Source of the DNA: an uncultured Alphaproteobacteria bacterium
GTDB lineage: Bacteria; Pseudomonadota; Alphaproteobacteria; Rhizobiales; Xanthobacteraceae
Assembly: GCA_963784755.1 (NCBI GenBank)
Contig: CAWASS010000003.1
Span: 395,591-459,590 of the forward strand
Direction of reading: 5' to 3'
DNA: 64,000 bases
Positions 17,753-22,187 of this stretch are shown piece by piece; positions within the stretch are counted from its first letter, which is position 1, and every line of letters begins with the position of its first letter. The position numbers and the translations under genes are program-made. Below the pieces are notes generated by a model. It was given only the letters and a program-made list of their open reading frames with translations. It did no database searches and had not been told where the DNA came from.

Positions 17753-17915
17753 CGTCATTCCGGGGCGACGCGAAGCGGCGAGCCCGGAATCCATAACCCC
17801 CAATCGTGGTTATGGATTCCGGGCCTGCGCATCCAAGTCGGCTGTTGCCGACTTGGACAATGACAATGCCGAACTCGGGTAAACCCGAGTTCGGCTGGGC
17901 GCATCCGGAATAACG
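17753..17915. repeat. REP-like family B composite with two nested perfect hairpins
   Basis: Family B arms plus an 11-bp stem (17832-17857) and a 12-bp stem (17868-17895) inserted in the last arm. Confidence 0.85.
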
Positions 17916-18000
17916 TCTGTTCGCATCGCCTTGATTCCCCTCTCTGCCGCCGATACGGTCCCGCGCGCTCGACTACCCCTTCCCGAGACCGATTCTACCG

Positions 18001-18936
18001 ATGGACTCGCTGCCCCCGCATATGCGCCCGGAACGCTCGTTCCAGGGCTTCATCCTTGCCCTGCAGCGGTTCTGGGCCGATCAGGGCTGCGTGATCCTGC
18101 AGCCTTACGATATGGAAATGGGAGCAGGCACGTTCCATCCGGCGACGACGTTGCGCGCGCTCGGGCCGAGACCGTGGAAGGCGGCTTACGTGCAGCCCTC
18201 GCGCCGGCCCAAAGATGGCCGCTACGGCGAAAACCCCAATCGCCTGCAACACTACTATCAGTTTCAGGTGATCGTAAAACCGTCGCCGCCCGACCTTCAG
18301 GAACTGTATCTGAAGTCGCTCGCCGCCATCGGCATCGACTCGGCGCTGCACGACCTCCGCTTTGTCGAGGACGACTGGGAAAGCCCGACGCTGGGCGCGT
18401 GGGGGCTGGGGTGGGAATGCTGGTGCGACGGCATGGAAGTGTCGCAGTTCACCTACTTCCAGCAGGTCGCGGGCGTCGAATGCGCGCCGGTGGCGGGCGA
18501 ACTCACCTACGGGCTGGAGCGGCTCGCGATGTATGTGCAGGGCGTCGACCGCGTCTACGACCTCAATTTCAACGGCCGCGAGGGCGCCGACAAGGTGACC
18601 TATGGCGACGTGTTTTTGCAGGCCGAGCAGGAATATTCGCGGCACAATTTCGAAGCTGCCGACACCGACATGCTGTTCGAACAATTCAGGATGGCCGAGC
18701 AAGCCTGCCGGAAATATCTCGATGCCGGCTGGAAAGAGGGCAGCAACCGCAGGGAGCATTTGATGGCGCTGCCGGCCTATGACCAGTGCATCAAGGCCAG
18801 CCACGTCTTCAACCTGCTCGACGCCCGCGGCGTGATCTCGGTGACCGAGCGGCAAAGCTACATCATGCGCGTGCGCGAACTGGCCAAAGCCTGCGGCGAC
18901 GCCTGGGTGCATACCGAAGCCGGCGGGTCAGGGTAG
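18001..18936 (+). CDS. glyQ: Glycine--tRNA ligase alpha subunit
   Basis: [44 protein letters not shown]-type motif (LTYGLERL). Confidence 0.97.
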
Positions 18937-19006
18937 TTGCTTCGGCGTTTCTTAAAGCAAGAGTTTTCTAAGAAGCAGAAGCTGTTCTAGAGCGGCGGCG
19001 CCTCTT

Positions 19007-19453
19007 CTCCCCTCCTCCTTGCGGGGAGGGGTCGGGGGTGGGGGTCCACAGGCGATGGCTAATATGATTGAATCGCAAGCGATGGTTGACAGTCAGCGGC
19101 AATTTGCACGCCGAATGCGCGCGCAACCGACCGATGCTGAGCGCGTGCTTTGGCAGCGGCTTCGGCATGACATCGCTTTGACCGGCTCGCATTTCCGGCG
19201 TCAGGCTTCGATCGGACCGTTCATTGTCGATTTCGCGAGTCGAAAGGCGAAACTCGTCATCGAACTCGACGGCGGCCAGCATGATCTGCAGCGCGCGGCC
19301 GATGCTGCGCGGACGCGGCGCATCGAGAGCAGCGGCTATCGGGTTTTGCGTTTCTGGAACAACGACGTGCTTGGCAACCTCGAAGGCGTGCTCAGCGAAA
19401 TTCAGCGCGCGTTGCCCCCCGTCCCCGACCCCTCCACGCAAGGGGGAGGGGAG
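19007..19453. mobile_element. Inverted-repeat-bounded DUF559 cassette (putative miniature mobile element)
   Basis: 37-bp inverted repeats at 19007-19043 and 19417-19453 (33/37 identical) bracket an endonuclease ORF inside glyQS. Confidence 0.6.
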
Positions 19454-19498
19454 CCGCGCCAGCGTGCGCCGCGCCGTCCCCGCAAAGAGCGCAAATAA
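19055..19498 (+). CDS. DUF559 / Vsr-like endonuclease domain protein
   Basis: T.AE..LW..LR, FRRQ..IGPFIVDF, LVIELDGGQH, GYRVLRFWN pattern. Confidence 0.88.
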   Translation: MANMIESQAMVDSQRQFARRMRAQPTDAERVLWQRLRHDIALTGSHFRRQASIGPFIVDFASRKAKLVIELDGGQHDLQRAADAARTRRIESSGYRVLRFWNNDVLGNLEGVLSEIQRALPPVPDPSTQGGGEPRQRAPRRPRKERK

Positions 19499-21679
19499 AT
19501 GCCCGATCTCCTGCTCGAACTGTTTTCCGAGGAAATCCCGGCGCGGATGCAGGCGAAGGCGGCCGACGATCTGCGCCGCATGGTGACCGACAAGCTCGTC
19601 GCCGAGGGCCTCGTCTATGAAGGCGCCAAAGCCTTCGCGACGCCGCGGCGGCTGACGCTGACGGTGCACGGCATCCCCGCGCGGCAGTCCGATCTGAAGG
19701 AAGAGCGCAAGGGCCCGCGCGTCGGCGGGCCGGACGCCGCGATCGCGGGCTTTCTGAAAGCCACCGGCCTTGCTTCGCTGGAGGAGGCAAAGATCCAGCG
19801 CGATCCGAAGAAGGGCGACTTCTACATCGCGCTGATCGAAAAACCCGGCCGCGCCACGCTGGATGTGCTGGCCGACTTCCTGCCGGTGATCGTGCGCACG
19901 TTTCCGTGGCCGAAGTCGATGCGCTGGGGCGAACGCTCCGCAAAACCCGGTGCGCTGAACTGGGTGCGGCCGCTGCATTCCATCGTCGCCACCTTCGGCA
20001 TGGAGACCGAGGAGCCGGAGGTGGTGAAATTCGCCATTGACGGTATCGAGGCCGGCCAGACCACCTATGGCCACCGCTTCATGGCGCCGGCCGCGATTTC
20101 CGTGCGCCGCTTCGAGGATTACGAAACAAAGCTCGCTGCGGCGAAGGTCGTGCTCGATCCGGCGCGGCGGAAAGACACCATCCTGGCCGACGCGAAGCAG
20201 CTTGCGTTCGCGCAAGGGTTTGAACTGGTCGAGGACCAGGTGCTGCTCGACGAGGTCGCGGGCCTGGTCGAATGGCCGGTGGTGCTGATGGGGTCGTTCG
20301 AAAGGGAATTTTTATCGATTCCCGCGGAAGTGATCCGCGCCACCATCCGCAATAACCTGAAGTGCTTTGTCGTCAGCGACCCCAAGGCCGGGGCGCTCAC
20401 CAACAAGTTCGTCCTCACCGCCAACATCGAAGGCTCGGACGGCGGCAAAACCATCGTCGCCGGCAACGAGCGCGTGATCCGCGCGCGGTTGAGCGATGCT
20501 AAGTTTTTCTACGAGACCGATCTGAAGACCAAGCTGGAGGAGCGACTGCCGAAATTCGAGAAGATCGTGTTTCACGAGAAGCTTGGCACCCAGGGCGAGC
20601 GCATCGCGCGGATCGAGCGGCTGGCGGGAAAGATCGCGCCGATCTTGTGGAACCAGCGCGAGACGTTCTTTGCTGGCAAGTTCTTGAACGCAGATGGTTT
20701 TGGGGACGAGCAGGAATATACCCGCAACGTCTGCCGCGCGGCGAAGCTGGCAAAGGCCGATTTGCTGACCGAAGTGGTCGGCGAATTCCCCGAGCTGCAG
20801 GGCCTGATGGGCAAATACTACGCGCTGGCGCAAGGTGAACACGCCTCCGTCGCCGCGGCGAGCGAGGAACACTACAAGCCGCTTGGTCCGGCCGATCGGG
20901 TGCCGACCGATCCGGTTTCGGTCGCGGTGGCGCTGGCGGACAAGATCGACACGCTGGCCGGCTTCTGGGCGATCGACGAAAAGCCGACGGGGAGCAAGGA
21001 CCCGTTTGCGCTGCGCAGGGCGGCGCTCGGCATCATTCGCATCCTGCTCGACAATGCGCTGCGGGTCGGAATGGTCGCGATGATCGAAACCGGCATGGAT
21101 GTGCTGCGCGCCACCAGCAAGCGGCACACGCTGCCGGGCGATCATCTCGTCTCCGGCGATTTGCTCGCTTTCTTCGCCGACCGCCTGAAGGGCCAACTCC
21201 GCGAGCAGGGCGCGCGCCACGATCTGGTCGACGCGGTGTTTGCGCTGGAAGGCCAGGACGACCTCCTGATGGTGGTCCGCCGGATCGAGGCGCTTGGCAA
21301 ATTCCTCGACACCGACGACGGCAAGAACCTGCTGGCGGGCACCAAGCGCGCGGCGAATATTTTGCGGATCGAGGAGAAGAAGGACGGCAAGGCGTATGAC
21401 GGCGCGCCGGATGCCGCGCTGTATTCTCTCGATGAAGAAAAAGCGCTCGCGAAAGCGATCGATCAGGGGAAGGTTGAGGCCAGCGCCGCTGTCGCGCAGG
21501 AGGATTTTGCTGCCGCGATGAGCGCGATGGCGAAGTTGCGGCCGGCGGTGGATGCTTTCTTCGACAAGGTCAAGGTCAACGACGACGATCCGAAGGTGCG
21601 CGAAAATCGCCTGAAGCTGCTCAACGAAATCCGCGCCGCCACCCGCGCGGTGGCGGATTTTTCGAAGATACAGGATTGA
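19499..21679 (+). CDS. glyS: Glycine--tRNA ligase beta subunit
   Basis: [46 protein letters not shown]. Confidence 0.96.
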
Positions 21680-21706
21680 TCAATATCCGGAGCGTTGCTG
21701 CGCTTC

Positions 21707-21728
21707 CTCGCCCCGCTTGCGGGGCGAG
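21707..21728. repeat. Solo hairpin related to the DUF559 flanking repeat; possible glyS terminator
   Basis: ctcgccccgc-tt-gcggggcgag perfect 10-bp stem; shares the ttgcgggg core with 19019-19026. Confidence 0.55.
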
Positions 21729-21827
21729 CTGAAGCAAACAAAAGCCCCGCCCGGTGGAGATTTCCGGAGCGGGGCCTTGTCGCCCAGTCGCGATTGCGGC
21801 GCGCCTGAGCGCGGATCGTTCAGGCGT

Positions 21828-22187
21828 TTACTCGATCACCTGAACGATGCGACGCGTGCGCGGTTCGACCAGCACGGTCTGGCCGTTCACCACGGTGTAG
21901 CGATACGGCGTGGCGCCATAGGTCTGCGGCACGTCGTAATAGGTGATGCCGGCTTCCGGCAGCACGCCGCCGACGATCACCCGATCCGGGATGGTGTAGG
22001 TCGGCACGCGCTCGCGGACGACATAGTCGCGGAACGCCGGCCGATGCTCCACGGCAATGCCGTCGCCGTTGTCGACGATCACGCTGCCGCCGCGGACCAC
22101 GCCCACCGTGTCGCTCTGCGCCTGCGCCGCGATCGGCGCGCCGATGACGCCCGCAATCGCGGCAATGGCAAGAATCCTGTTCCGCAT
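21828..22187 (-). CDS. DUF1236-like secreted protein
   Basis: Signal peptide ending AQA; VG.VLP, YRYTVVN...VLVEPRTRRIVQVI. Confidence 0.75.
   Translation of the reverse strand: MRNRILAIAAIAGVIGAPIAAQAQSDTVGVVRGGSVIVDNGDGIAVEHRPAFRDYVVRERVPTYTIPDRVIVGGVLPEAGITYYDVPQTYGATPYRYTVVNGQTVLVEPRTRRIVQVIE

Follow-up and report, generated by a model that had tools for sequence, protein, structure and literature searches.

A DUF559 cassette between glyQ and glyS

We analyzed a window of 64,000 nt (GenBank assembly GCA_963784755.1, contig CAWASS010000003.1, positions 395,591 to 459,590 of the forward strand) from an uncultured alphaproteobacterium of the GTDB genus Bradyrhizobium, whose genome is 4.96 Mb long with 63% GC. 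The subject of this analysis is the gap between glyQ and glyS, the genes for glycyl-tRNA synthetase. In the window this gap is 562 nt (18937-19498) and is occupied by one inserted cassette consisting of a spacer, a three-block folded repeat, an open reading frame (ORF) for a DUF559 nuclease, and an inverted copy of the repeat. The cassette is a selfish member of a widespread gene-plus-repeat family and is sited at the junction of an essential operon. The features of the locus, in window positions, are as follows.

18001-18936, + strand: glyQ, glycyl-tRNA synthetase alpha, upstream host gene (PF02091, E = 1.5e-141)
18937-19006, + strand: non-repeat spacer, 70 nt, missing from empty junctions, which read ..GGGCGGTCTGATGCCCGAT..
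19007-19057, + strand: left terminal repeat, three-block unit (repeat search, block scoring, folding)
19055-19498, + strand: DUF559 nuclease ORF, 147 amino acids (Pfam, structure match, invariant residues)
19403-19453, - strand: right terminal repeat, inverted three-block unit, degenerate (repeat search, block scoring, folding)
19499-21679, + strand: glyS, glycyl-tRNA synthetase beta, downstream host gene (PF02092, E = 8.8e-184)
21702-21735, + strand: solo GC hairpin CTTCCTCGCCCCGCTTGCGGGGCGAGCTGAAG, 23 nt past the glyS stop (folding -15.2 kcal/mol, z = -3.9)

An earlier reading of the sequence, referred to here as the original prediction, had described inverted repeats around the DUF559 ORF that matched at 33 of 37 positions. 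The 37-nt cores do match at 33/37, and the repeat search extended the arms to 51 nt each, 82% complementary and separated by 345 nt. The left arm consists of a C-rich block (19009-19018), the loop TTGC, the purine block GGGGAGGGG (19023-19031), the linker TC, and the mirror block GGGGGTGGGGG (19034-19044), with a single C-to-T change compared to the consensus of relatives. The right arm has decayed, with a G-to-T change in the purine block and GGGGACGGGG as its mirror block. Each repeat had been said to contain its own hairpin. This held for the left arm (-11.6 kcal/mol, z = -2.2) and failed for the right arm, which folded no better than shuffled sequences (z = +0.5). In two relatives the arms are perfect, left and right being identical.

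The likely start of the ORF is the ATG at 19055, directly past the left arm, rather than the TTG at 19019. The Pfam domain is encoded by approximately 19094-19414; the frame then runs on through the right arm, such that the basic C-terminal tail is made of the right repeat and the next 42 nt. The TAA stop (19496-19498) directly adjoins the glyS ATG at 19499, and both this and the passage of the ORF through the right repeat were read from the sequence as the original prediction had given them. A scan between glyQ and glyS returned no promoter-like or terminator-like site, which is weak evidence. The spacer was poorly conserved among cassettes of the window's type (type A) but is missing at empty sites and therefore belongs to the inserted DNA. 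The 3' end and stop codon of glyQ in the window are also unlike those of cassette-free relatives.

Empty, filled, and decayed junctions

We compared the glyQ/glyS junction in 24 genomes of Bradyrhizobium. The junction was empty in 14 genomes, among them the relative nearest in GlyQ identity, and in these the glyQ stop overlaps the glyS start as TGATG (..CTGATGCCC..). The ORF had been proposed to be an insertion in the operon and not a conserved member of it, and the empty state bears this out. A DUF559 cassette was found in 7 of the 24 genomes, the patchy presence that had been foreseen. In one further genome a window-type cassette has lost its ORF apart from the initial 25 nt, which follow the left arm and meet the right arm at a CGCAAG microhomology. 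Another had a 31-nt gap with a solo hairpin of a different type, which we read as a footprint. In relative G017 the gap measures 326 bp and is filled by an unrelated small ORF encoding two iron-sulfur motifs of the CDGSH type, which shows that the junction accepts other inserts.

The seven cassettes at this junction belong to three DUF559 clades with 47-52% mutual identity, each with its own repeat type. On the glyQ tree the occupied alleles lie mostly in one subclade of nine genomes, within which the three cassette types are interleaved. At every occupied junction the cassette stop is 0-8 nt ahead of the glyS ATG. The synonymous divergence (dS) of window-type cassettes from three genomes was 0.86-1.2, compared to 0.5-0.66 for the adjacent glyQ. 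Cassette dS is at least as high as glyQ dS, and the cassettes are therefore old and not recently transferred. Taken together, conserved operon junctions of Bradyrhizobium and its relatives have acquired and lost cassettes, exchanged one for another, and retained some with internal deletions.

The glyQ/glyS and trpB/trpA junctions can be read filled against empty, although divergence masks short target duplications there. At sdr/glpK and livK-type sites, which lie outside operons, the intergenic DNA was too diverged and contained other palindromes, leaving the insertion boundaries unreadable. A window-type cassette in an Afipia sp. metagenome-assembled genome (JAFVHU010000031.1, approximately 1400-2010) is flanked by a perfect 64-bp direct duplication. 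The duplication copies the last codons of the upstream gene and contains a 37-nt spacer comparable to that of the window. Since the duplication is perfect, the Afipia copy is a young insertion; it is the youngest that we observed. Shorter duplications with a gene end or start were found at a sucC/sucD copy (approximately 32 bp), at a glyQ/glyS copy (24 bp), and at one gene-less doublet of the window's genome (19 bp). A regular target-site duplication was ruled out, the duplications being few, long, and variable in length.

The cassette family and its sites

The window's genome has five DUF559 loci: the glyQ/glyS copy of the window, a pheS/pheT copy, a sucC/sucD copy, a truncated copy past an acyl-CoA synthetase gene, and a TrmJ-type methyltransferase that carries the domain at its C-terminus. 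The four loci that are not fused are all flanked by inverted repeats, each with its own sequence type. Across 25 genus genomes there were 81 Pfam DUF559 hits, made up of approximately 24 TrmJ fusions (one per genome) and approximately 54 free-standing copies. Free-standing copies numbered 0 to 5 per genome, with zero in two genomes.

Each locus was given a frame score, which compares the upstream flank with the reverse complement of the downstream flank, with 1000 random genome positions as the control. The median score was 70 for family loci and 22 for random positions, and 50 of the 54 genus loci reached the 99th percentile of random positions (32). Cassette length was uniform at 430-520 bp. 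Beyond the genus, other alphaproteobacterial genera showed the same frame at 19 of 28 loci, some of them in genomes of 33-39% GC, and assemblies of Sphingomonas, Magnetospirillum, Burkholderiales, Myxococcales, Acidobacteria, and Chloroflexia showed it at 60 of 75 additional loci. Inverted repeats are thus enriched at DUF559 loci, which is what the original prediction led one to expect.

Sites in the genus were named by clustering of the flanking proteins and by Pfam.

pheS/pheT: 11-12 genomes, two clades
glyQ/glyS: 7 genomes, three clades
dnaN/recF: 7 genomes
trpB/trpA: 6 genomes, DUF559 antisense to the operon
urease subunit genes: 4 genomes
sucC/sucD: 2 genomes
livG/livF-type ABC ATPase genes: 2 genomes
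other sites: a few genomes

The readable empty states (glyQ/glyS and trpB/trpA) are overlapping pairs of stop and start codons. Clades of the DUF559 tree track both site and repeat type. One short-branched clade occupies at least five different sites, and one member of the dnaN/recF clade sits elsewhere. The window's clade is at glyQ/glyS in Bradyrhizobium, Rhodopseudomonas palustris, and Nitrobacter; Afipia, B. aeschynomenes, and others have it at different sites.

Two side observations concern the sites and the reading frames. In the window's genome the dnaN/recF gap (C4:1238542-1238639) and a convergent gap by a livK-type gene (C4:862146-862284) are free of cassettes, and each contains a long palindrome of a third kind (..GGGCTTGxCCCGGCxATCCA..). 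Sites of these kinds are thus shared by several families of palindromic repeats. Several free-standing DUF559 hits in relatives lie within stop-free frames of 380-790 amino acids, which suggests possible read-through fusions with neighboring genes.

The DUF559 protein

The ORF product matched DUF559 (PF04480) at E = 4e-38 with 130 bits, against a cut-off of 20.6. Its NCBIfam match, NF007294, scored 93.5 bits, under the equivalog cut-off of 218. The nearest solved structure was 3HRL, an uncharacterized Neisseria protein (E = 4e-21). Across 52 copies, 16 alignment columns were conserved at 90% or more, and all 16 residues are kept both in the window protein and in 3HRL. The putative catalytic residues (D..E.DG..H and R..N) are all present in the window protein. 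The ratio of nonsynonymous to synonymous divergence (dN/dS) was 0.06-0.16 in all ten DUF559 clades and 0.11 in the window's clade.

Other identities of the protein were considered and rejected. A Vsr very-short-patch repair endonuclease did not fit: the Pfam scan gave no Vsr match (PF03852), only DUF559 and a sub-threshold MTES_1575, and the neighbors are glyQ and glyS, not a cytosine methyltransferase gene. By the same Pfam scan the ORF carries DUF559 only and no transposase domain of any recognized kind. A known defense system was also set aside, the PADLOC library giving only two marginal partial matches (E approximately 0.007). DUF559 is a very large family for which we know of no function.

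The fused form resembles the cassettes in domain family and occurs in the same genomes, but differs in other respects. The TrmJ (SPOUT)-DUF559 fusion, located at C2:461749-462048 in the window's genome, is a single vertical copy found in nearly every genus genome, and no repeats flank it. Six of the invariant residues have changed (D72V, G73N, H76E, D83R, R99L, and N102A), and because of these replacements the fused domain is probably inactive as a nuclease. It is therefore unlikely to be the resident enzyme in genomes where free-standing copies are missing. The fusion, known in Alphaproteobacteria as the bll5746 type (PMC1829167), is probably an old cassette captured at a gene end.

Three-block repeat units

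The arms share one layout: a C-rich block, a loop, a purine complement, either 2-3 nt or a second GC hairpin, and a G/T-rich block. This third block mirrors the purine block, A being either retained or changed to T. The mirror rule was perfect in 70 of 93 arms (9/9 positions in the window's left arm) and spans at least six independent unit types. For asymmetric purine blocks, a mirror reading beat a direct-repeat reading in 47 arms, tied in 25, and lost in 1.

Stems are retained while loops vary freely, and the second hairpin is very variable in sequence yet always paired. Alignment folding was performed for one unit type, in which the length-variable second hairpin aligned poorly; formal covariation was confined for this reason to one compensatory pair in the first hairpin, and compensatory changes in the second hairpin were read by eye. 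Purifying selection acts on the nuclease and on the repeat structure too. In the long units of doublets from relatives G002 and G019, the second hairpin has a new sequence in nearly every copy but is palindromic each time, perfectly or nearly so, whereas the three blocks do not change. Such variation looks like repeated regeneration of the palindrome, perhaps by fold-back synthesis, rather than slow compensatory change.

The units fit better among the BoxC/PIT/TM triplex-motif repeats (Hoyne et al. 2000, as cited; Holder et al. 2015, PMC4666352), with which they share the class II purine-motif layout of C-rich block, purine complement, and mirror G-rich block. Holder et al. showed in vitro that such repeats adopt an intrastrand triplex (PMC4666352). 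Blocks 2 and 3, being G-rich, could instead fold as a G-quadruplex. The location between genes and the patchy numbers between related strains are further points of likeness. There are differences as well. The window's unit (CCCCTCCCC / GGGGAGGGG / GGGGTGGGG, with a 2-nt second loop) is off the strict TMECO pattern, CCCTCNCCC N3-6 GGGNGAGGG N3 GGGNGAGGG. This pattern had no match in the window and five matches elsewhere in the window's genome, the TTA second loop included. In many units here, a further hairpin of hypervariable sequence separates block 2 from block 3. Lastly, the published work on BoxC/PIT/TM repeats describes no gene associated with them, whereas here a DUF559 gene is framed by the units.

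Gene-less units and doublets

The window's genome contains 41 perfect three-block units compared to 6 in a reversed-sequence control. Approximately 8 of the 41 flank DUF559 genes, and approximately 33 are not next to DUF559. The latter include approximately ten inverted doublets with a spacing of 70-120 bp, and more are present in relatives; gene-less doublets of the same repeats do exist. In two relatives the doublets are 131-141 bp and consist of a long unit, a center of approximately 40 nt, and an inverted short unit. Pairing of a long with a short subtype is like the inverted pairs of type A and type B formed by TM repeats in E. coli (PMC4666352).

The center of the doublets aligns with both inner ends of the cassette, namely the surroundings of the start codon and the last approximately 30 nt of the ORF. 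The doublets thus have both ends of a cassette and hardly any of its interior. This alignment, together with the deletion of the ORF in situ at glyQ/glyS, points to the doublets being internally deleted derivatives of cassettes, which would make them similar to miniature inverted-repeat transposable elements (MITEs).

Does the nuclease act on the repeats?

Several results tie the ORF to its ends. Among 119 other alphaproteobacterial genera, at least five generic three-block units were present in 24 of 29 genera with DUF559 compared to 9 of 90 without it, a co-occurrence with an odds ratio of 43 (p = 3e-13, uncorrected for phylogeny). Each DUF559 clade also has its own unit type, indicating that the ORF and the ends evolve together. 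On this evidence we lean modestly toward reading the cassette, as a whole, as a selfish insert whose nuclease acts at its own folded ends.

The following steps are proposed for it. The cassette would probably be expressed by read-through from glyQ, having no promoter-like or terminator-like signal of its own, and glyS translation would probably stay coupled because the cassette stop sits at the glyS ATG. The nuclease probably recognizes the folded end units of its own cassette, as a hairpin or an intrastrand triplex, and nicks there. Such a nick would start copying or gene conversion that moves or maintains the cassette, and in trans the nuclease could do likewise for the MITE-like doublets. 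The rare duplications of 19-64 bp suggest either widely staggered nicks or integration via short homology.

A number of observations weigh against this proposal. No DUF559 protein is known from biochemistry to cut DNA, let alone DNA of these repeats, and we know of no case in which a lone PD-(D/E)XK nuclease is enough for transposition. Two genus genomes contain 60 and 24 units of one type and no free-standing DUF559, and seven other genera have 6-20 units with no DUF559 at E = 1e-3; two more genera with units have C-terminal DUF559 remnants only. Within the genus, unit number did not differ between genomes that have the cognate clade and those that lack it (median 14 vs 11, p = 0.23) and did not correlate with gene number (rho = 0.07), following genome size instead. 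Flanking duplications were rare (10 of 109 cassettes and 1 of 27 doublets, 19-64 bp), and the right arm of the window's own cassette is decayed. Finally, given the age of the shared cassettes, much of the pattern is vertical descent with loss. Units are abundant in genomes without intact DUF559, so mobilization of the repeats by DUF559 is something that we infer. Repeats outlive the gene, so their presence needs no resident nuclease. MITEs show such a pattern of repeats without a gene after loss of the autonomous element; here the pattern fits MITE-like persistence and DUF559-independent repeats equally.

Three other explanations were weighed. The nuclease could belong to a homing-type selfish gene, cutting cassette-free alleles of the junction or nearby DNA and not its own repeats. 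After transfer of DNA between strains, homologous recombination through the conserved flanking genes would copy the cassette in, and the repeats would do something else, for example act as hot spots for recombination or insulate the host operon. The cassettes do resemble homing endonuclease genes: a small nuclease gene lies between very conserved genes, the place where free-standing homing endonuclease genes are found, with presence/absence polymorphism, clean empty sites, and several lineages per site. The one junction common to three lineages with types interleaved on the host gene tree, the largely site-specific clades, and the duplicated glyQ 3' end beside one cassette all agree with homing. 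The fold class is related as well, I-Bth0305I being a Vsr-fold homing nuclease listed in the same clade as DUF559 (PMC3424549). The window protein gave no sequence match to 3R3P at E = 0.01. Nor do we know of cleavage of an empty site by DUF559. Against homing, the 110-amino-acid domain comes without a further domain that could read long DNA targets, one clade is present at five or more unrelated sites, and the shared cassettes are old without recent transfer. Homing genes, moreover, have no terminal inverted repeats or gene-less derivatives, so that the near-universal, conserved inverted three-block ends and the dispersed doublets built of both cassette ends would be left unexplained. We consider homing unlikely. 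It is also quite improbable, in our judgment, that the units spread or persist by a host process or another enzyme, with DUF559 either carried as cargo between two units or kept as a structure-specific guardian nuclease that processes damage caused by the structures. The plentiful units in genomes without intact DUF559, the independence of unit number from the gene within the genus, and the many perfect units of the window's genome away from DUF559 (approximately 33 of 41) are what such a passenger or guardian would predict. Work on TM repeats likewise saw no mobility gene nearby and linked the repeats to genomic instability (PMC4666352). However, this explanation does not readily accommodate clade-specific unit types, uniform cassettes of 430-520 bp, an ORF that begins directly past the left unit and terminates in the right one, or the strong co-occurrence at the genome level. 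The doublets, furthermore, carry the inner ends of cassettes (the start-codon region and the last codons), giving a direction from cassette to doublet, and the patchy distribution of multiple lineages is unlike that of a housekeeping repair gene.

The remaining explanation is a regulatory module of the host, in which the hairpins and the small ORF tune the ratio of glyQ to glyS expression through mRNA processing, stability, or translational coupling. Points that could be taken in its favor are the closeness of the cassette stop to the glyS start (0-8 nt) at all occupied junctions, the lack of a terminator in the gap, and the age of the cassettes. However, most relatives, including the closest, do without a cassette, and the same cassette type occurs in unrelated operons and, at trpB/trpA, antisense. 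Purifying selection is on the catalytic residues of the nuclease and not on RNA alone, and purine-motif triplexes do not form in RNA (PMC4666352). A regulatory module is therefore very improbable.

A broader proposal, possible but in our view doubtful, is that DUF559 cassettes with folded-end units are the autonomous members of an unrecognized class of mobile element. Such a class would encode nothing but a minimal Vsr-like nuclease and would end in intrastrand-triplex or hairpin units, with the BoxC/PIT/TM repeats as its MITE-like derivatives. Sitting where one gene of an essential operon stops and the next starts, these elements would survive because transcription costs them nothing and the conserved flanks can carry them between species.

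Comparison with known systems

The original prediction had likened the locus to a REPtron, that is, to repetitive extragenic palindromes (REP) and their REP doublets (REPINs) with a REP-associated tyrosine transposase (RAYT). The layout agrees, in that one enzyme gene lies between inverted repeats and the repeat is dispersed as gene-less doublets near gene ends. The enzyme class and the population behavior do not. The enzyme here is a Vsr-like PD-(D/E)XK nuclease, compared to an HUH tyrosine transposase of the IS200/IS605 type; it is present in 0-5 patchy copies of multiple lineages, compared to a single vertically inherited gene; and repeats number in the tens instead of hundreds, with no dependence on the gene within the genus. 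Insertion sequences and MITEs are similar to the cassettes in having terminal inverted repeats, one ORF, and short derivatives made only of the ends that persist without an autonomous copy. In contrast to these, the cassette has no DDE, HUH, serine, or tyrosine recombinase and no regular short target duplication, and its ends are folded three-block units.

In the literature reachable here, no description was found of DUF559 paired with these repeats, the nearest item being one table row in which DUF559 is enriched among predicted inversion targets (PMC9881135). New in this analysis are the census of one junction occupied by three lineages, the habit of residing at operon junctions, the covariation of the mirror block, the descent of doublets from cassettes, the young insertion with its 64-bp duplication, and the negative result on dependence of the repeats upon the gene. 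BoxC/PIT/TM repeats have been without a partner protein since the 1990s, and a physical and evolutionary link to DUF559 offers both a testable function. If the nuclease acts on the folded ends, it would represent a new route of DNA mobility that combines a PD-(D/E)XK nickase with non-B DNA ends, as well as a natural structure-specific nuclease. The junction lifestyle is that of a selfish gene living harmlessly within essential operons. For annotation, the family accounts for stray "endonuclease domain-containing protein" genes and for odd G/P-rich protein tails in GC-rich genomes.

Other repeats around the operon

The original prediction had also placed a related solo hairpin after glyS. The hairpin itself is well formed at 21702-21735, while its relation to the family is only probable because the third block is missing. 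Compared with the unit ends CTTCR-CCTCTCCCC and CCTCGCCCCGCTTGCGGGGAGAGG variants, it has a CCCCGCTTGCGGGG core in common with other unit types of the family, and it probably derives by decay from the first hairpin of a different unit type. An Rfam search over 18800-21900 gave no relevant match. On the other side of the operon, the 126 bases directly upstream of glyQ (17800-17925) are a copy of a different dispersed repeat, of which the genome has approximately 8 nearly complete copies (86-94% identity) and many partial copies. This repeat holds nested palindromes, including a 12-bp stem at 17868-17895.

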